From an uncultured Alphaproteobacteria bacterium (lineage in GTDB: Bacteria > Pseudomonadota > Alphaproteobacteria > Rhizobiales > Xanthobacteraceae), in NCBI GenBank assembly GCA_963747165.1, contig CAVVEA010000012.1:114595-178594 (forward strand): DNA of 64,000 nucleotides, written 5' to 3'. The position numbers were made by a program, and so were the translations under genes. Shown here one piece after another: positions 2,253 to 38,074 of this stretch. Numbering within the stretch: position 1 is the first letter of the stretch; each line of letters begins with the position of its first letter. The notes under the pieces are model-generated. The model ran no database searches, was not told the DNA's origin, and saw only the letters and a program-made list of their open reading frames with translations.

Positions 2253-3059
2253 CTAATCCCACCCGTCTCCCTTGATCCCCGCATTCGCGTAAACGATGCC
2301 GCCATCGACGGCGATGGTGTTGCCGACCACGTAATCGCCGGCGCGGGAGGCGAGATAGATCGCGGCGCCCGCCATGTCCTCATCGGTGCCGATGCGGCCG
2401 GACGGCACCCGCGTCGCGACTTCATCGGCATTGTCGCGCGCCGCCTTGTTCATGTCGGACTTGAACGGTCCCGGGGCGATCGCCGTGACCACGATGTGGT
2501 CGCGGATCAGTTTCACCGCCATTCGCCGCGTCAGATGGATCAGGCCGGACTTGCTGGCGGCATAGGAATACGTCTCCATCGGATTGACGAAGATGCCGTC
2601 GATGGAAGCGATGTTGATGACCTTGGCGGGCCGCGCAGCGGTCGCGTCCGCGCGCAAGGGGGCGGCCAGCGCCTTGGTCAGGAAGAACGGCGTCTTGAGA
2701 TTGAGGTTCATCACCTTGTCCCAGCCGCTCTCGGGAAATTCGTCGAAGTCAGCGCCCCACGCAGCACCGGCATTGTTGACCAGGATATCCAGCTTCGGTT
2801 CGCGCTTCTTGATTTCGGCTGCCAGCATCTCGATGCCGGCCATGGTGGAGATGTCGATCGGCAGCGCGATGCATTCGCCGTCATGGGCCGCAGTCAGCTC
2901 TTTCGCGGTGGCCTCGCAGGGGCCCGCCTTGCGCGCGGTGATGTAAACCTTCGCCGCGCCCTGGCTGAGAAATCCAGCCGCGATCATCTTGCCGATGCCG
3001 CGCGATCCCCCGGTCACCAGCGCGACACGGCCCTTGAGCGAAAACAGATCCTTCAACAT
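2253..3059 (-). CDS. Short-chain dehydrogenase/reductase (RhlG/FabG-like)
   Basis: TGGSRGIG cofactor motif, NNAG, YSYAASK catalytic YxxxK. Confidence 0.9.
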   Translation of the reverse strand: MLKDLFSLKGRVALVTGGSRGIGKMIAAGFLSQGAAKVYITARKAGPCEATAKELTAAHDGECIALPIDISTMAGIEMLAAEIKKREPKLDILVNNAGAAWGADFDEFPESGWDKVMNLNLKTPFFLTKALAAPLRADATAARPAKVINIASIDGIFVNPMETYSYAASKSGLIHLTRRMAVKLIRDHIVVTAIAPGPFKSDMNKAARDNADEVATRVPSGRIGTDEDMAGAAIYLASRAGDYVVGNTIAVDGGIVYANAGIKGDGWD

Positions 3060-3124
3060 GCGTTCCTCCGTTGATCTTGTCAGCGGTTTTGGGCGCGGGA
3101 GGAAGATGAGTCAAGGAACACACT

Positions 3125-3152
3125 CGTCGTCCCCGCGTTCGCGGGGACGACG
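3125..3152. repeat. Perfect REP-derived hairpin, possible terminator
   Basis: CGTCGTCCCCGCG-TT-CGCGGGGACGACG, lying just 3' of the deacetylase stop codon. Confidence 0.7.
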
Positions 3153-3160
3153 CTACTTGA

Positions 3161-4219
3161 TTATGCCGCGTCGATACGCCGAAAACCGTTCCACATTGCG
3201 GTGGCGGCGCCCGAGGTCAGTACCGGCGGAATGTGCGCCTCTTGATAATGGCCGTTGAGCGAGACGCGCTGCAGCGCGGTCAGATGATCGGCGCTTTCGG
3301 GAAAGATCATGCCCGGCCGCGTCGTTACCGCGGTCTTGAATCCAGCCGCGCGGGCCAGCGCGAACTCGCGGGGACCCGCCGCGATCTTGTCGCCATAGGG
3401 ATAGGCGAGATGGAGGGCGGGGCGCTGCAGGGCGCTTTCGATCCGCGCCCGGCTGACCGCCATTTCATGGGCCGCGATCGCTTCGGTCTCGCTGGCGAGA
3501 TTGCAATGCGTAATCGTATGCGCGCCGATCGTGACCAGGGGATCGTCCGCGAACGGCTTCAATTCATCCCAGGACATGCAGAGTTCGCGGCAGATGGCGG
3601 TTTCATCGACGCCGTGACGTGCGCACAGCGCGCTGATCTCGCGACGGACATCATCCGCCCCGGGCAACAGGCGCAGCCAGTCATGCAGGCGGTCGAATGC
3701 CGCCTGCTTGGCCGACGCCGTCGAGGTATCGAGGCGCGTCGGCGTCTCCCCGATGGTCACTTCGACGACAGAAGCCCTGGCGATCACCATTTCCAGCGCG
3801 ACCCACCACAGCCGGCCGCTGCCTTCGGCGAAATCGCTCGCGACATAGACGGCAAAGGGCGCTTCAAATTCCCGCATTACCGGTAGCGCGTAATCGCGGT
3901 TGTCGCGATAGCCGTCGTCGAGCGTGAAGCAGGCAAAGCGCCGCGAAAACCGACGCTCGACCAGCCGCAGGTGAGCTTCGTCCATGGTGATGATATCGAT
4001 ACCGCCCGCGCGAAGATGTGCGAGCATCGCCCGCAGAAACTCCGGCGCCACCTCGAGGTGGCGGTTGGGCTGGAACTCGGCCTCGCGCCGGGGCCGGACG
4101 TGGTGCAGCATGAAAATGGCGCCCACGCCTGCGAACAAAGGTCGCAGCAGATGGTACGCGCCGGTGAAGTAAAGCGCTCCCAGTCCGGCGCGGATGACGT
4201 TGGTGCGAAGCTGCTTCAT
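3161..4219 (-). CDS. Polysaccharide deacetylase (NodB/CE4 family)
   Basis: TLDDGY motif, GAHTITH, AYPYG. Start placed at MKQLRT (4219). Confidence 0.85.
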   Translation of the reverse strand: MKQLRTNVIRAGLGALYFTGAYHLLRPLFAGVGAIFMLHHVRPRREAEFQPNRHLEVAPEFLRAMLAHLRAGGIDIITMDEAHLRLVERRFSRRFACFTLDDGYRDNRDYALPVMREFEAPFAVYVASDFAEGSGRLWWVALEMVIARASVVEVTIGETPTRLDTSTASAKQAAFDRLHDWLRLLPGADDVRREISALCARHGVDETAICRELCMSWDELKPFADDPLVTIGAHTITHCNLASETEAIAAHEMAVSRARIESALQRPALHLAYPYGDKIAAGPREFALARAAGFKTAVTTRPGMIFPESADHLTALQRVSLNGHYQEAHIPPVLTSGAATAMWNGFRRIDAA

Positions 4220-4383
4220 GAGGTGTGGCTGGCCGGTTGGGCGTGGTTTCGAAGCTAGCCGGGGACCGCTGAAGAAACAGTTAGCCGGAAGCGTGGTCCG
4301 GCGCCGGACCATTCCGCTCATTTCCAGTTTGACAGCCCGGCAAGGGTTTGTTTTCTCTCCGTTCCAGACCCGCGGGACATCGA

Positions 4384-5778
4384 ATGCACGGACTTTTCAA
4401 GTGGAGTAGCAAATGGTGGCCGGGCGTCATTCCACTGGTCGTTTTCTGGGTGATTGCAGCCTGGACGAGTACTCCGCCGCTGGAAGCCGATCTGGCCGCC
4501 CGTAGCGCCACCGCGGTCAAGGATACCCTGCTGGACAAGCGCAGGATCGCCGTCGCCGGCCGCGACGTCACCTTTGGGGCGGACGCTTTCTCGGAAGAGG
4601 GCCGTCGCGGCGCGGTTGCCTCGGTGGAAGCCGTACCGGGTGTGCGGCTCGTCAACGATGAAACCCGCCTCGTTCCGGAAGCTACGCCGTTCGTCTGGTC
4701 GGCGGAGCGGGACGTCGTCCGGGTGACGTTGGGGGGCAGTTCGCCTTTGCCCGCCAGCAAGGGCAAGTTGGTCGAGGCGGCACGCGCCGGCCTCGGCGGC
4801 GTCGAGGTCGTCGATCAGATGAAGTTGTCGCGGGGCGCGCCGCCGCTTTTCGACAACGCCGCGTTGCTGCTGCTGGACCAGATCGGCAAGCTCAAGGACG
4901 GCAAGATCACGATTTCAGACACCAAAGTCAGCCTTTCCGGCATGGCGCGCGATCTTGGCGGCCGCGAAGCCATCGCGGCGGCGTTGAAAAATCTTCCCGA
5001 GGGGTTTTCGGTTGCCGCCAATGAGATCAAGGCGCCGCCTTATGTGTTCCAAGCCTACAAGGATCCGGTCGCATCGACGCTGACGCTGACCGGTTATGTG
5101 CCCGACAGCAATGTCCAGACGGCGCTCACGACCACGGCGGGCCGCAAGTTCTTCAGCGAAAAGGTGGTCGATAATCTCAAGGCCAGCGTCGGCGCACCTT
5201 CCGGCTTCGCCAATGCGGTGGTGCCGGCGCTGGGCGCGCTGTCGCGGCTGTCGACGGGGACGCTGGTGGTGTCCGACCGGGAGGTCAAACTCTCCGGCGA
5301 TGCGTTCTACGATGCAGCGGCGGCTCAAATCCGGGCCGGCCTCGGCAAGGATTTCCCGCAGGGCTGGCAATTCAAGGCCGACATTTCGGTCAAGCCGACG
5401 TCCGCGCCGGTCGATGCGACCGTATGCCAGCAATTGCTGTCGGATCTGTTGGCCAAGGGAAAGGTCCGCTTCGAATCCGGGCGCGCCACCATCGATGCGG
5501 ATTCGGCGGGACTGCTCGATCGTCTGATCGAAACGGCGTTGCGCTGCCCATCCGTCAATATCGAGATCGCGGGCCACACCGACGGCGACGGCGAGGACGG
5601 CTTCAATCAGGCGCTGTCGGAAAAGCGGGCGCAGGCGGTCGTGGACTATCTGGTGAAGGTCGGCCTGCCGGCGAGCCGCTTCAGCGCGGTCGGCTATGGC
5701 AGCACCCAGCCGGTCGCGTCCAATGATACCGACGAGGGCAAGGCGCGGAACCGCCGCATCGATTTCGTGGTGAGGTAA
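4384..5778 (+). CDS. Membrane-anchored BON-domain plus OmpA-like peptidoglycan-binding protein (Rv0899/ArfA-like architecture)
   Basis: N-terminal TM segment, repeated BON-like modules (V.L.G, TLTGYVPD), C-terminal GHTD...N..LSEKRA..V...GYG..QP...N.T..G.A.NRR. Confidence 0.85.
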   Translation: MHGLFKWSSKWWPGVIPLVVFWVIAAWTSTPPLEADLAARSATAVKDTLLDKRRIAVAGRDVTFGADAFSEEGRRGAVASVEAVPGVRLVNDETRLVPEATPFVWSAERDVVRVTLGGSSPLPASKGKLVEAARAGLGGVEVVDQMKLSRGAPPLFDNAALLLLDQIGKLKDGKITISDTKVSLSGMARDLGGREAIAAALKNLPEGFSVAANEIKAPPYVFQAYKDPVASTLTLTGYVPDSNVQTALTTTAGRKFFSEKVVDNLKASVGAPSGFANAVVPALGALSRLSTGTLVVSDREVKLSGDAFYDAAAAQIRAGLGKDFPQGWQFKADISVKPTSAPVDATVCQQLLSDLLAKGKVRFESGRATIDADSAGLLDRLIETALRCPSVNIEIAGHTDGDGEDGFNQALSEKRAQAVVDYLVKVGLPASRFSAVGYGSTQPVASNDTDEGKARNRRIDFVVR

Positions 5779-11052: not shown

Positions 11053-11898
11053 ATGAACCCGATTTACGCGCGCCGGCGCCGCTTCGACATCATCGTCAAG
11101 TTCCTCTGTCTCGGCGCCGCGCTGTTCGGCGTCACCTGGCTGGCCTTGATCCTGTTCACGCTGTTCTTCAACGGCCTCGCCGGGCTCAATCTGCAGGTCT
11201 TCACCCAGAATACGCCGCCGCCGGGATCGACCGAAGGCGGCCTGCTGAATGCGATCACCGGCTCGGTCATCATGACCGTGATCGGCGTCGGCATCGGCGC
11301 GCCGCTAGGGCTGTTCGCCGGCACCTATCTGGCCGAATATGGCAGGAACGACCGCCTCACCTCGGTGATCCGCTTCATCAACGATATTCTGCTCAGCGCG
11401 CCGTCGATCATCATCGGCCTGTTCGTCTACGGCGCCATCGTGGTGCCGATGGGCGGGTTCTCGGCTTTCGCCGGATGCCTGGCGCTGGCGGTGATCGTCA
11501 TTCCCGTGGTGGTGCGCACCACCGAGGACATGCTGCTGCTGGTGCCCAATCCGCTGCGCGAGGCGGCGTCCGCGCTCGGCCTGCCGCGCTCGCTGGTGAT
11601 CAAGCGCATCGCCTACCGCGCCGCGCGCGCCGGCCTCATCACCGGCGTGCTGCTGGCGACGGCCCGCGTCGCCGGCGAGACCGCGCCCCTGCTGTTCACC
11701 GCACTGAGCAACCAGTTCTTCAGTCTCGACCTGACCAAGACCATGGCCAACCTGCCGGTGACCATCAACAACTTCGTGCAAAGCCCCTACGCCTACTGGA
11801 AGCAGCTGGCCTGGAGCGGCGCCCTGATTATCACCTTGACCGTACTTGCCCTGAATATTGGCGCGCGCATTCTGGGCGCCGAGAGGACAGCAAAATGA
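11053..11898 (+). CDS. pstA: Phosphate ABC transporter permease PstA
   Basis: [30 protein letters not shown]. Confidence 0.93.
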
Positions 11899-25205: not shown

Positions 25206-25214
25206 GATCACATT

Positions 25215-25283
25215 GTCCCCGGCCTGTTTAGCGACTTATTTAACGTGGCTGCAAGCCGGCCGGCTCAAATCACCACGGGATAA
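25215..25283 (-). promoter_or_regulatory. SAM-II (SAM-alpha) riboswitch
   Basis: Minus strand CGTGGTGATTTGAGCCGGCCGGCTTGCAGCCACGTTAAATAAGTCGCTAAACAGGCCGG matches the SAM-II pattern (GATTT...TTGCA...AAAT...GCTAAA); upstream of metZ. Confidence 0.9.
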
Positions 25284-25400
25284 GTGATGCTCATATTCCC
25301 TCGCGCCCTTTCCGTCAAGGCGGCCTTCGGATAACGCATAAAAGTCCGTATTTTCAGCGTCTGGATGGCGTAAGCTCAGCCATCCCGGGGACCCTCTGCC

Positions 25401-36113: not shown

Positions 36114-36187
36114 GCGGGCGTAGTTCAATGGCAGAACGGCAGCTTCCCAAGCTGCATACGAGGGTTCGATTCCCTTCGCCCGCTCCA
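36114..36187 (+). tRNA. tRNA-Gly(CCC)
   Basis: GCGGGCG acceptor stem pairs with CGCCCGC; D-arm TAGTTCAATGGCAGAAC; anticodon arm GCAGC-TTCCCAA-GCTGC; GGTTCGATTCC; encoded CCA; 74 nt. Confidence 0.97.
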
Positions 36188-36525: not shown

Positions 36526-36984
36526 ATGGCCGACGAAGACGAGAGGGCGCGTTTAGAACGCATAGTAGCCATTGCCTGTGATCACGGGGGCTTTGCCCTC
36601 AAAGAAGCCCTGAAGGTCGCTTTGCCCGATGTGAAGTGGCTGGATTTGGGCACAAATAGCGCCGATTCCGTCGACTATCCCGATTTCGCCGGCAAGCTGG
36701 CCGATGCCATCAAGGCCGGCAAGGCCGGACGCGGCATTCTGATCTGCGGATCGGGCATCGGCATTTCGATCGCCGCCAACCGCCATGCGCATATCCGTTG
36801 CGCGCTTGCGCATGATGTCACGGGCGCGCGGCTGTGCCGCCAGCATAATGACGCGAATGTTTTGGCGATGGGCGGACGGATGATCGGCGAAGCGGTGGCG
36901 AAAGAATGCGCCGAAGTGTTCTTGAGCACGAAATTCGACGGCGGTCGCCATCAAAAGCGCGTCGATAAACTGGGTTCCTGTTAG
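36526..36984 (+). CDS. rpiB: Ribose-5-phosphate isomerase B
   Basis: ACDHGG..LK, DYPD, ILICGSGIG.SIAANR, R.HNDANVL.MGGR, FDGGRHQKRV. Confidence 0.93.
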   Translation: MADEDERARLERIVAIACDHGGFALKEALKVALPDVKWLDLGTNSADSVDYPDFAGKLADAIKAGKAGRGILICGSGIGISIAANRHAHIRCALAHDVTGARLCRQHNDANVLAMGGRMIGEAVAKECAEVFLSTKFDGGRHQKRVDKLGSC

Positions 36985-37024
36985 GACAGCAAAGTTCGCC
37001 GGCAGGACGCTATCTTTCCCCATC

Positions 37025-37365
37025 GTTCGCGCGTACGGTCGTCCCGTCGAAAGACGATGGCGCTGAAACTTAGAGCGGACTGCGGGCAGACCCGGGGGCA
37101 GTACCCGGCGCCTCCACCTGAGCAGCTTGAGCTTAAAGGTCTCATTGCGGTGAGATCGATTCCGTCGCAAGGCGGAATTCCAAGGCTGCTGAGGCGGGGG
37201 CGAAACAGGATCGATGGTCGCGAAGAAGCTCTGAATTGTGCCCGGCATGATACCGCCGTTATCGGGTCAAAAACCTAAATGCAAACGATAACGTTGCATT
37301 GAACGAAGTGCGCCTCGCGGCGTAACTGTTCGGGGTTGGTCCACCTGGCAACAGAACGGCCATCG
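37025..37365 (+). ncRNA. ssrA: Circularly permuted (two-piece) tmRNA; tag (A)NDNVALNEVRLAA
   Basis: Acceptor piece: T-arm CCGGG-GGCAGTA-CCCGG plus CGCCTCC-A-CC (37092-37118). Coding piece starts GGGGGCGAAACAGGATCGA (37196). The acceptor stem has the G3.U70 Ala identity pair. Resume codon GCA at 37281 after TAAAT, TAA at 37323-25. 3' CACCTGGCAACAGAA motif. The 5' end is approximate. Confidence 0.9.
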
Positions 37366-37400
37366 CCGCGTCAGCCTTCGGGCTGGCGCGGCTTTTATTT
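37365..37400 (+). terminator. Intrinsic terminator of the tmRNA gene
   Basis: GCCGCGTCAGCC-TTCG-GGCTGGCGCGGC-TTTTATTT. Confidence 0.88.
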
Positions 37401-37501
37401 TCGAACGGCTCTCGATGGTTGTGCGGCGACTTCAATTTCGCGCGTCGTTATGCTATGCAAGTTGCATAAATGATGCAGGCACGTGGAGATAGGGGCGAAC
37501 G

Positions 37502-38074
37502 TTGACCCAGGCGATCACCGTCAACGCCAAGGCCGGCGGCGGCTGGCCGAAGATCGCCGCCGCAGGCGTGGTCACCGGGCTCCTGACGCCGCTATTGCCG
37601 CCGCTGATCGACAAGATCAACGGCTCGCCCGGCGATTTCCGGATTGCGCTGGTGGCGATCCCGTTTGCCATCCTGGTTTTTTTCCTGGTCCGCCGGCTTG
37701 GCCCAAATCCGTTATGGGCAGCGCTGATGGCCGGCATCGTCACGATGATCGCGTTCGTGTGCGCGGTGAACGCGGCGATCTGGGTCGACGGGCAAGCGTC
37801 CGGGGCCGACAAGGTGGTCCGGAATATCTGGGCCGGATTGGCCGGCGGCTTCACCGGCGCCACCGTCATGGCGCTCGGCATCTGCCTGCTGCCGGCGGGC
37901 CCGCGCGATATCGTGGCGTGGCTGCCGATGCTGGCCATGGGTACCGTCGCCGGCGCGCTGCTGGCGCTGGACAGTGCACTCGATTTCGATCTGACCTCGT
38001 TCCTCTATCCGCTCTGGCAGGCCGGCGTCGCGGTCACGCTGGCGATGGCGTTGCGGCGGAGCAGGGTTTCCTGA
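37502..38074 (+). CDS. Hypothetical multi-pass membrane protein
   Basis: TTG start after GGAG; about 6 hydrophobic segments with repeated AG..AG/GG motifs. Confidence 0.75.
   Translation: MTQAITVNAKAGGGWPKIAAAGVVTGLLTPLLPPLIDKINGSPGDFRIALVAIPFAILVFFLVRRLGPNPLWAALMAGIVTMIAFVCAVNAAIWVDGQASGADKVVRNIWAGLAGGFTGATVMALGICLLPAGPRDIVAWLPMLAMGTVAGALLALDSALDFDLTSFLYPLWQAGVAVTLAMALRRSRVS

Follow-up and report, generated by a model that had tools for sequence, protein, structure and literature searches.

A permuted alphaproteobacterial tmRNA lies at about positions 37045-37400 on the forward strand of the 64-kb stretch of DNA analysed here (the window), where it was called by both ARAGORN and Rfam and is the single tmRNA detected by these tools. 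ARAGORN placed a permuted tmRNA with the tag ANDNVALNEVRLAA at 37027-37416 (+), and two Rfam models were each matched over their full length, namely alpha_tmRNA (RF01849; 167.6 bits, E-value 1.6e-46, gathering threshold 50, positions 37007-37367) and tmRNA_permuted (RF04321; 129 bits, gathering threshold 47, positions 37059-37325). Both programs recovered the permuted order, with the acceptor piece upstream of the coding piece. An earlier reading of this DNA, made from the letters alone and referred to below as the sequence-only reading, had proposed a permuted two-piece tmRNA; this identity is confirmed by the ARAGORN call and by the two Rfam scores above gathering, and each of the ssrA parts named in that reading was found at its position in a direct check of the sequence. 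The locus is a real, intact permuted two-piece tmRNA, which is named ssrA2 here; its parts and immediate surroundings are listed in Table 1. The window was taken from a 529-kb metagenome contig. Its whole sequence was found complete in none of the public sequencing runs (best share 0.76, all metagenomes).

Table 1. Features of ssrA2 and its immediate surroundings (positions refer to the window).
Feature	Position	Strand	Remarks
tRNA-Gly(CCC)	36114-36187	+	ARAGORN; Rfam tRNA, 69.7 bits
rpiB (ribose-5-phosphate isomerase B)	36526-36984	+	Pfam LacAB_rpiB, 8.1e-55; outside the tmRNA
Leader	37007-37056	+	conserved motif CTATCTTTC at 37010-37018; GAAA-tetraloop hairpin at 37045-37056
Acceptor piece	37057-37118	+	from the Rfam alignment
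Helix P2, 5' strands	37059-37063, 37070-37076, 37083-37088	+	within the acceptor piece
T-arm	37092-37108	+	within the acceptor piece
3' acceptor strand CGCCTCC	37109-37115	+	followed by encoded ACC, 37116-37118
Intervening segment	37119-37195	+	between the mature pieces; 77 nt
Coding piece	37196-37362	+	5' acceptor strand to 3' hairpin
5' acceptor strand GGGGGCG	37196-37202	+	pairs with CGCCTCC; G3.U70 is G37198.T37113
D-loop analogue AAACAGGATCGA	37203-37214	+	
Helix P2, 3' strands	37215-37242	+	
Cross-piece helix	37070-37076, 37228-37234	+	TTAGAGC with GCTCTGA
Pseudoknot PK1	37243-37263	+	stems 37243-37246/37255-37258 and 37249-37252/37260-37263
Resume context		+	TAAAT before the GCA resume codon at 37281
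Tag ORF	37281-37325	+	14 codons and TAA
Hairpin in the short 3' domain	37337-37362	+	hairpin
Intrinsic terminator	37365-37400	+	12-bp stem with TTCG loop, 37365-37392, then T-run TTTTATTTTC

A consensus scan yielded no sigma-70 promoter for ssrA2. An EcfG-like GGAC...CGTT match in the window was considered as a promoter and rejected, being without conservation in relatives (alignment judged by eye). A 5-bp 3' pseudoknot (37326-37330/37350-37354) was likewise not retained and was left uncertain, with a C.A mismatch in 90 of the 96 sequences.

The neighbours of ssrA2 comprise rpiB, a membrane ORF, a cupredoxin, a DUF4142 protein, an ECF sigma factor and RidA; among the ten neighbours tested against Pfam, no integrase, phage gene or mobility domain was found. 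The GC content is flat around ssrA2 (0.60-0.66), and a repeat of the 3' end of tRNA-Gly, as expected of an att site, is absent from the 64-kb window. SmpB motifs were found in no frame of the window. Regarding the related loci listed, tRNA-Gly(CCC) is found on the same strand upstream of ssrA2 in 58 of 109 and directly adjacent to it in 24, and many relatives have only 32-61 nt between the end of this tRNA gene and the tmRNA call. The placement of rpiB between tRNA-Gly and ssrA2 is limited to the lineage of the window (7 of the 119 related loci listed); in the relatives having it, the nucleotide identity of rpiB is 93-96%, versus 75-80% for the flanks. The flanks of relatives are syntenic at 75-85% identity. 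Duplicate tRNA-Gly 3' ends in four related loci (L027, L066, L090 and L100) mark islands between tRNA-Gly and ssrA2, and tRNA-Gly(CCC) is an integration hot spot. No synteny of the window locus was found with the class members of Rhodopseudomonas palustris BisB18, Bradyrhizobium NFR13, Tardiphaga, Methylobacterium and Microvirga; several of those in Rhodopseudomonas, Tardiphaga and Bradyrhizobium (including BisB18 and NFR13) are located near rlpA or dacA instead. That ssrA2 travels as a recent passenger on a mobile element (prophage, island or plasmid) is ruled out by the flat GC content, the lack of an integrase and of an att repeat, and the conservation of the locus in more than 100 species. 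The ssrA2 of the window is best described, judging from these comparisons, as a clade-wide, syntenic and vertically inherited chromosomal gene.

The tag frame of ssrA2 reads GCA AAC GAT AAC GTT GCA TTG AAC GAA GTG CGC CTC GCG GCG TAA, which corresponds to ANDNVALNEVRLAA and a stop. The exact 49-nt string that encodes the tag was found in at least 119 genome stretches, which come from more than 100 species genomes, nearly all of them Bradyrhizobium. The frame is kept in 120 of the 120 matches listed for the ANDNV...LAA class, though the search pattern permitted any spacing, and zero variants were observed in the tag region of soil metatranscriptome contigs. The canonical tag ANDN[F/Y]APVAQAA was carried by 111 tmRNAs among the matches listed in the canonical scan (with F in B. 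diazoefficiens), which bears out the usual Bradyrhizobium tag given in the sequence-only reading, ANDNFAPVAQAA. The ANDN start of the tag and the GCA resume codon are common to ssrA2 and the canonical alphaproteobacterial tmRNA. However, the canonical Bradyrhizobium tag is two residues shorter and ends in AQAA, whereas that of ssrA2 ends in RLAA, and the resume context is ATAGTT in the former and TAAAT in the latter.

Conservation and covariation were determined from 96 species loci, with identities given as pairwise means. The acceptor piece and the coding piece showed mean identities of 95.2% and 95.7%, respectively (99.8% in the stretch from PK1 to the resume codon), whereas the intervening segment showed 83.4% and the flanks of ssrA2 42-50%. 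The terminator is 88.3% identical across relatives. The average identity within the leader was 69.6%, with 11 of 50 positions invariant; the inner three pairs of its hairpin are invariant (96/96), and the one that closes it, 37045-37056, can form in 83 of the 96 sequences. The T-arm, the acceptor stem (including the G.U pair 37198-37113) and the encoded ACC do not vary among the 95-96 related sequences that have a letter in these columns. The window copy differs from the clade consensus at three mature positions. The length of the intervening segment is 77 nt in most relatives and 134 nt in B. erythrophlei. This distribution of identities indicates that purifying selection acts on the mature ssrA2 RNA.

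Regarding base pairing, 97.1% of the cells were paired, compared with 28-47% for shifted partners and 92.0 +/- 0.3% for shuffles. Double-sided changes occur in 9 of the 21 variable pairs, and the compensatory changes are located in P2b, P2c and the 3' hairpin. P2a, P2b and P2c are 97% paired; the P2 pair 37075-37229 is GC in 71, GT in 12 and AT in 9 sequences, and the pair 37084-37219 is GC in 88 and AT in 7. PK1, the acceptor stem and the T-arm contribute no covariation evidence because they are invariant. The predicted pairing of the two pieces via the acceptor stem and helix P2 is shown by covariation.

Transcription of ssrA2 is supported by ssrA2-specific contigs in soil metatranscriptomes, which are assembled contigs of mixed soil communities and not of the organism of the window. 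The depth of the ssrA2-specific contigs was 3629 in run X33 and 521 in run X38, and that of the canonical tag region in the same runs was about 3400-4500 and 540-650, respectively, contig depth being a poor measure of abundance. In these assembled community data, an RNA 5' end was seen at G37196 on an ssrA2-specific contig, right after the 5' adapter, and an RNA 3' end at 37362, right before the 3' adapter. The depth within the intervening segment was 0-12, versus hundreds to thousands on the mature pieces of the community contigs. One contig stops at 37118, where a non-templated A precedes the adapter; this end is not specific to ssrA2 because the 31-nt stretch concerned is shared with the canonical tmRNA.

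Compared within one genome, ssrA2 and the canonical gene are about 52% identical. The coding piece comprises 172-177 nt in the ssrA2 lineage (173 nt in ssrA2), compared with 209-215 nt in canonical genes, and the 3' domain is about 40 nt shorter, as it is throughout the class, members on phages and plasmids included. AACAGAA follows the stop codon at a distance of 24 nt in the Nitrobacteraceae group to which ssrA2 belongs and of 24-26 nt across the class. In a simple neighbour-joining tree on identity, the canonical genes of ten Hyphomicrobiales families formed one tight clade with ssrA2 outside it, and ssrA2 was placed as sister to a phage contig and near plasmid copies. Overall, ssrA2 clusters with tmRNAs that are carried by phages and by megaplasmids of Methylobacterium and Microvirga. 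The tags of the plasmid and phage copies are ANDNVGMEMRLAA (pMRAD01 of Methylobacterium radiotolerans), ANDNVDMGAVRLAA (Microvirga pMVF16-2) and ANDNVGMIEMRLAA. The nearest sampled relative lies on a phage contig with head and baseplate genes, and its acceptor and coding pieces are 74% and 69% identical to those of ssrA2, respectively; phage structural genes are carried by the contig L350. Since its relatives reside on phages and plasmids, the ssrA2 lineage is a mobile one and the window copy is not. The description of the locus as horizontally acquired, given in the sequence-only reading, thus stands only for an old event within a phage/megaplasmid lineage and falls for a passenger on mobile DNA at this site. 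As part of the explanation preferred below, ssrA2 was probably acquired anciently by a forebear of a large Bradyrhizobium clade; alternatively, it may have arisen by an old duplication, diverged fast and later been exported to mobile elements.

The canonical two-piece tmRNAs of Caulobacter crescentus (ssrA), B. japonicum/diazoefficiens (ssrA, also sra) and S. meliloti (ssrA) have the same permuted order as ssrA2, which shares with them the G3.U70 acceptor stem, the T-arm, the D-loop analogue, PK1 and the conserved CACCUGGCAACAGAA loop. In two stretches, one of 30 nt and one of 22 nt, ssrA2 matches the canonical Bradyrhizobium tmRNA letter for letter. The intervening segment is shorter in most of the canonical genes sampled (25-48 nt, up to 86 nt) than in ssrA2, which coexists with the canonical gene and does not replace it. 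Second or third ssrA alleles, sometimes on plasmids, are known to occur (Hudson, Lau and Williams 2014, PMC4131195); that statement is a single sentence, without description of the ssrA2 lineage or of its structure and expression. The pMRAD01 copy belongs to the same short-form ANDNV...RLAA class and is likewise additional to a canonical gene, but it lies on a plasmid, whereas ssrA2 has a syntenic place on the chromosome and is fixed in over 100 species. Two-piece tmRNAs encoded by phages have been reported for the methylophage Melnitz (PMC9004378). The short architecture and an adjoining tRNA gene are common to ssrA2 and to the phage tmRNAs of Melnitz, of the Sinorhizobium jumbo phage Phosso and of IMG/VR contigs. 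In contrast to the phage copies, ssrA2 is accompanied in the window by no phage genes, integrase or att repeats and has long been inherited vertically in a cellular genome, and its tRNA-like domain matches the canonical tmRNA of the host and not the phage versions. The mycobacteriophage DS6A has a minimal tmRNA (TLD only) which is reported to inhibit the host tmRNA (cited in PMC11915505 and PMC4131195). It resembles ssrA2 in being an extra tmRNA-like RNA that has to share SmpB and the ribosome with the resident tmRNA; however, it consists of the TLD only, whereas ssrA2 keeps PK1 and a complete, conserved, in-frame tag ORF, which suggests that ssrA2 is built for tagging proteins and not for competing alone. 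A full-text search of the literature found no description of the ssrA2 lineage, the items recovered being the general remark on extra alleles (PMC4131195) and reports on phage tmRNAs (PMC9004378, PMC12656738).

At least 31 assemblies with the exact ssrA2 tag also hold a canonical ANDN[Y/F]APVAQAA tmRNA (11 from the canonical-tag scan and 20 more from a second canonical scan; a lower bound and not a rate). Among them are the isolates dw_78, AUGA SZCCT0176, SZCCT0431 and SZCCT0158, and the two genes share a contig in three cases (NZ_JAAVUS010000001, CAVYPW010000006 and CAWFYF010000010). Carriers of ssrA2-type genes with complete genomes include Bradyrhizobium sp. dw_78, RDT10 (CP187939), TZ2 (CP170752), McL0615 (NZ_CP188254), B. 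erythrophlei GAS478 and R. palustris BisB18 (NC_007925). The canonical copies in ssrA2 carriers are intact, with 306 bits against Rfam alpha_tmRNA. These data bear on the view that ssrA2 is simply the native, sole ssrA of the organism, in a lineage which replaced or lost the canonical tag. Such a view would agree with the occurrence of this tag at one syntenic locus in over 100 related species, with the flat GC content and the lack of mobility genes, and with the one tmRNA in the 64-kb window, which is the part of the genome covered; yet it is hard to reconcile with the carriers of both genes, which include the nearest relatives by ssrA2 sequence among those sampled (LY.8 and dw_78), and among the matches listed no carrier was shown to lack the canonical gene. 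It is therefore regarded as quite unlikely. The sequence-only reading had named as counting against it a sole ssrA in the genome together with the same tag at the same locus in close relatives; the close relatives do share tag and locus, but at least 31 carrier assemblies hold a canonical ssrA besides ssrA2. The claim of a second tmRNA accordingly holds for the lineage, and for the genome of the window a coexisting canonical ssrA would be expected by extension from its relatives.

That ssrA2 is a disused relic in decay, for example a tmRNA pseudogene left by a prophage or a duplication, might be suspected from an alpha_tmRNA score of about half the canonical one (167 versus 306 bits), from the roughly 40 nt missing in the 3' domain and from the empty consensus promoter scan. 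This reading is strongly disfavoured and has a very low probability: the mature pieces are 95-96% conserved against 42-50% for the flanks, base-pair changes are compensatory, the tag frame is intact in every one of the 120 class members listed, the RNA is abundant and has processed ends in soil metatranscriptomes (community contigs), and the shortness of the 3' domain is shared and conserved throughout the class, also by the members on phages and plasmids. A further reading grants that the RNA is made but assigns it a main role other than tagging, as an SmpB/ribosome competitor which modulates the canonical system, as a leftover phage tool or as an attachment site for integrative elements. It draws on the phage-borne relatives of ssrA2, on descriptions of phage tmRNAs and of a TLD-only phage tmRNA inhibiting the host tmRNA (PMC9004378, PMC11915505), and on the identity of the tRNA-like domain to that of the host, owing to which ssrA2 must compete for the same partners; moreover, breaks of MAG contigs fall within ssrA2, two copies that differ in their flanks are present in some MAGs, and one IMG/VR contig has just the 3' tag-bearing portion. 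However, the tag ORF is the most conserved part, with frame and LAA end kept across the class, which is not expected if the tRNA-like part or an att core alone mattered, and the islands in the clade of the window insert at tRNA-Gly and not within ssrA2. A main role outside tagging is thus considered improbable.

The preferred explanation, which is held to be likely, is that ssrA2 is a functional second tmRNA of a short-form accessory lineage, acquired long ago beside tRNA-Gly(CCC) and since then inherited vertically alongside the canonical ssrA. A single precursor would be transcribed, as the observed transcripts suggest, and RNase P would presumably cleave it at G37196. Trimming of the acceptor piece to ...CCACC would be followed by addition of a terminal A, the 77-nt segment would be discarded and the coding piece would end near 37362; where the pieces end and how scarce the segment between them is can be seen in the soil metatranscriptomes (community contigs), and the enzymes are presumed. 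The acceptor stem and helix P2 would then join the two pieces, in line with the covariation. The tRNA-like domain is identical to that of the host canonical tmRNA over 30 nt and 22 nt, which suggests the use of the same AlaRS (via G3.U70), SmpB and EF-Tu. On stalled ribosomes, ANDNVALNEVRLAA would be added instead of ANDN[Y/F]APVAQAA, the degron RLAA would replace AQAA, and the tagged peptides would end in ...NDNVALNEVRLAA. The cell would thereby possess a second pool of rescue RNA, with products that may be handled differently by ClpXP, adaptors or other proteases.

An extension of the preferred explanation to many Nitrobacteraceae (Bradyrhizobium, Rhodopseudomonas, Tardiphaga, Afipia) and to Methylobacteriaceae is offered tentatively and is more doubtful. 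In such a dual-tmRNA system, a domesticated, phage-derived short form at levels similar to the canonical RNA might direct a share of the rescued chains to a distinct fate by an RLAA-type degron with a different adaptor-binding middle, the AQAA tag serving the rest, so that each cell would have two specialised channels.

The tmRNA is usually regarded as a universal single-copy housekeeping RNA which provides one degron tag per organism. In the present case, over 100 species of a soil genus that matters to agriculture and ecology have conserved a second tmRNA whose tag differs. Carrier genomes will be mis-handled by annotation pipelines, and by tools for taxonomy or island finding that rely on tmRNA, if these assume one ssrA per genome, and in carrier strains the paralogue may mask ssrA knock-outs. 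If both RNAs are active, the carriers would offer a natural system for the role of the tag sequence as opposed to ribosome rescue, for the way in which one SmpB serves two tmRNAs, and for the conversion of a phage rescue tool into a host gene.

A circularly permuted gene of the alphaproteobacterial tmRNA type, here called ssrA2, is located on the forward strand of the window (see table). ARAGORN called a tmRNA with the tag ANDNVALNEVRLAA, and the Rfam model alpha_tmRNA matched the gene over its full length with 167.6 bits (E 1.6e-46); the newer model tmRNA_permuted gave 129 bits. Every structural element listed in the sequence-only reading was found in its place. Neither ARAGORN nor Rfam found a second tmRNA within the 64-kb window. 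On the reverse strand at 25207-25286, Rfam also matched a full-length SAM_alpha riboswitch aptamer (RF00521, 90.1 bits), which has no connection with ssrA2.

Features of ssrA2 and its surroundings (identity: mean pairwise identity among 96 distinct Bradyrhizobium ssrA2 loci)
Feature	Position in window	Strand	Identity	Detail
tRNA-Gly(CCC)	36114-36187
rpiB	36526-36984
ssrA2 gene	37007-37400	+
ARAGORN tmRNA call	37027-37416
Leader			70%
Acceptor piece	37057-37118	+	95.2%
T-arm	37092-37108	+
CGCCTCC-ACC	37109-37118	+
Intervening segment	37119-37195	+	83%
Coding piece	37196-37362	+	95.7%
GGGGGCG	37196-37202	+		with G3.U70
Cross-piece helix				TTAGAGC with GCTCTGA
PK1-to-resume stretch			99.8%
Resume codon GCA	37281			preceded by TAAAT
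Tag frame	37281-37325	+		45 nt, TAA end
Terminator	37365-37392			12-bp stem, TTCG loop
190-aa membrane protein	37502-38074	+
Flanks			42-50%

Identity is distributed along the locus as one would predict for an RNA processed into two pieces. No variation was seen across the ssrA2 relatives in the acceptor stem, T-arm and PK1, and in the helices that do vary (P2a, P2b, P2c, 3' hairpin) the paired share of cells was 97.1%, with double-sided changes in 9 of 21 pairs; controls gave 28-47% when the partners were shifted by 1-3 columns and 92.0 +/- 0.3% in column shuffles. The window copy departs from the clade consensus at three mature-piece sites only, all polymorphisms also present in other species. 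Soil metatranscriptome runs contained contigs that match the ssrA2 tag region exactly, at depths of 3629 (X33) and 521 (X38); in these runs the canonical tmRNA tag region reached roughly 3400-4500 and 540-650, respectively. Adapter sequence abuts G37196 on its 5' side and 37362 on its 3' side, and the depth of the intervening segment was only 0-12. These are assembled community contigs and show that RNA of the ssrA2 type exists and is processed in natural settings, which is a statement about the community and not about this organism under defined conditions.

The ordinary tmRNA gene, canonical ssrA, encodes tags of the form ANDN[Y/F]APVAQAA. A degenerate scan for the tag named in the sequence-only reading as usual for Bradyrhizobium yielded at least 120 stretches, whose sources include Bradyrhizobium, Nitrobacter, Afipia, Pseudolabrys and Rhodoplanes, and it bore out that statement, ANDNYAPVAQAA (n=85) and ANDNFAPVAQAA (n=26) being the canonical tags among the matches listed. 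At least 11 assemblies were common to the matches listed for the ssrA2 and canonical tags, and a further scan with a canonical-gene segment typical of these genomes added at least 20 among 80 matches listed. Both genes are present in at least 31 assemblies, including those of the cultured isolates dw_78, AUGA SZCCT0176, SZCCT0431 and SZCCT0158, and share one contig in three cases (NZ_JAAVUS010000001, ~600 kb apart; CAVYPW010000006; CAWFYF010000010); the isolates and single contigs mean that mis-binning cannot account for the co-occurrence. Canonical copies in ssrA2 carriers are intact (306 bits). Since each set of matches listed is a sample, the overlap is a lower bound, and its size is about what would result if both genes were present in most or all carriers. 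The proposal of a second tmRNA holds for these relatives, and the window's own genome probably has a canonical ssrA as well. Among the locus pairs L058/L084, L016/L075, L050/L064 and L042/L072, two MAGs contain two copies of ssrA2 (99.7% and 93% identical) whose flanks are unrelated, and the additional copy may represent a third tmRNA gene; in two further MAGs of this set the contigs end within ssrA2 and overlap there by 72 and 97 nt, the pattern that a repeat in the assembly graph would leave.

ssrA2 and the canonical gene of the same genome are only ~52% identical. Their tRNA-like domains agree letter for letter over GACCCGGGGGCAGTACCCGGCGCCTCCACC (30 nt) and GGCGGGGGCGAAACAGGATCGA (22 nt), which implies that both would rely on one set of AlaRS, SmpB, EF-Tu and RNase P. 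As resume context ssrA2 has TAAAT and the canonical gene ATAGTT, the ssrA2 tag exceeds the canonical one by two residues and has RLAA instead of AQAA at its end, and the intervening segment (77 nt) is longer. ssrA2 lacks ~40 nt found downstream of the canonical stop codon; its coding piece measures 172-177 nt, whereas that of every canonical Hyphomicrobiales tmRNA sampled measures 209-215 nt.

The surroundings of ssrA2 are ordinary chromosomal genes (AraC regulator, Ogt-like methyltransferase, tRNA-Gly(CCC), rpiB, 190-aa membrane ORF, cupredoxin, DUF4142 protein, ECF sigma factor, RidA) with flat GC. The exact 49-nt tag-coding string occurred in at least 119 stretches of a one-genome-per-species collection, nearly all from Bradyrhizobium (among them B. 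erythrophlei, B. valentinum and numerous isolates and MAGs), with flanks 75-85% identical to the window and the same gene order. The conserved synteny, flat GC and clade-wide tag indicate that ssrA2 is old and vertically inherited in the Bradyrhizobium clade, and they speak against a recent mobile passenger. In 58 of 109 ssrA2 loci tRNA-Gly(CCC) precedes the gene on the same strand, in 24 of these at a distance of 32-61 nt; in some loci with wider gaps the tRNA-Gly 3' end is repeated, these being islands integrated at the tRNA that displaced ssrA2. Four loci (L027, L066, L090, L100) contain two to three direct copies of this 3' end between tRNA and ssrA2, the final copy in L027 and L066 lying ~87-89 nt ahead of the tmRNA call; islands at this tRNA in some species measure 0.6-2.8 kb. 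The corresponding gap in the window contains rpiB and no such repeat. rpiB occupies this position in only 7 of 119 listed related loci, where its DNA identity is 93-96% versus 75-80% for the surrounding genes, which suggests a recently spread insertion at a tRNA-Gly hot spot. The predicted 190-aa membrane protein directly downstream, without a Pfam match, adjoins ssrA2 in 54 of the 119 loci.

The short architecture, with ANDNV...[R/A]LAA tags, is also found on Methylobacterium radiotolerans pMRAD01 (ANDNVGMEMRLAA; Methylobacterium also has ANDNVVMDARLAA) and Microvirga pMVF16-2 (ANDNVDMGAVRLAA), and the architecture recurs in the Sinorhizobium jumbo phage Phosso and in IMG/VR contigs. The unannotated permuted tmRNA of Phosso (L242, PV764938.1, ~2435-3126; Rfam 108-113 bits) has an unusually long intervening segment of 411 nt and the apparent tag ANDNVSTKVALAA. 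A simple neighbour-joining tree grouped the canonical genes of ten families in one tight clade and placed ssrA2 and the plasmid and phage genes outside it; the nearest sampled relative of ssrA2 was on the IMG/VR contig L350 (tag ANDNVGMIEMRLAA), which carries head, adaptor and baseplate genes. A class-wide genome scan excluding the Bradyrhizobium ssrA2 tag showed that the class is widespread, with ANDNVDMGAVRLAA in Microvirga, ANDNVVMDARLAA and ANDNVGMEMRLAA in Methylobacterium, ANDNVRMNEVRLAA in R. palustris BisB18, R. rhenobacensis, Afipia and Bradyrhizobium NFR13, and ANDNVSMNEVRLAA in Tardiphaga; the tag reading frame was kept in 120 of 120 wider-class matches listed (pattern open to 22 spacings; tags of 12-19 residues). 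These members occupy other loci, several in Rhodopseudomonas, Tardiphaga and Bradyrhizobium near rlpA or dacA, and none of those examined was syntenic with the window. Class genes ~0.6-2 kb from an rlpA-like gene (L432, R. palustris BisB18, NC_007925.1; L419, L362, L398, L031), with tags ANDNV[R/S/A][M/L]NEVRLAA and in some cases dacA next (L362, L031), thus mark a second conserved locus in Rhodopseudomonas, Tardiphaga and some Bradyrhizobium. Methylobacterium members (L240, pMRAD01; scan loci) have an extra ~55-nt insertion within the PK1 region and a coding piece of ~230 nt, versus 173-177 nt in other class members. The viral contig L357 (IMG/VR UViG_3300028800_001569), which has 17 tRNA genes, ends in a tmRNA-like 3' portion (11325-11371, reverse strand) encoding ANDNVGMNEVRLAA, two residues off the window's tag, and its 3' hairpin resembles that of ssrA2. 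Upstream of this portion neither a tRNA-like domain nor PK1 is recognisable; it may be a fragment of attP type or else a divergent form. Given its differing loci and replicons, the lineage has moved between them, though the window copy is fixed; horizontal acquisition, as first proposed, fits only as an old event, the present copy being vertically inherited.

The tmRNA Website paper (PMC4131195) devotes one sentence to extra ssrA alleles, some of them plasmid-borne; two-piece tmRNAs of phages have been described (PMC9004378), as have tmRNA genes in phages of B. elkanii (PMC12656738). Full-text searches of the literature yielded no account of the short-form lineage, its Bradyrhizobium-wide fixation beside the canonical gene, or its expression; curated tmRNA databases probably list single sequences.

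The best-supported interpretation is that ssrA2 functions as a second tmRNA and belongs to an accessory lineage related to phage and plasmid genes. It is the only tmRNA gene in the window, and that it is the sole native one is less likely beside the assemblies with both genes. A relic is likewise less likely, set against the paired helices and the processed soil RNA. In the window's clade islands integrate at the neighbouring tRNA and not in ssrA2, and a role as competitor or attachment site, with no tagging, is also a less likely reading of a gene whose tag frame is kept. As a functional second tmRNA, ssrA2 would have been acquired long ago beside tRNA-Gly(CCC) and then kept alongside the canonical gene. 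RNase P would presumably act in its maturation, and it would be charged, bind SmpB and tag proteins. ClpX recognises C-terminal LAA-type residues and adaptors recognise the upstream part of the tag; products ending in RLAA may be degraded differently from those ending in AQAA.
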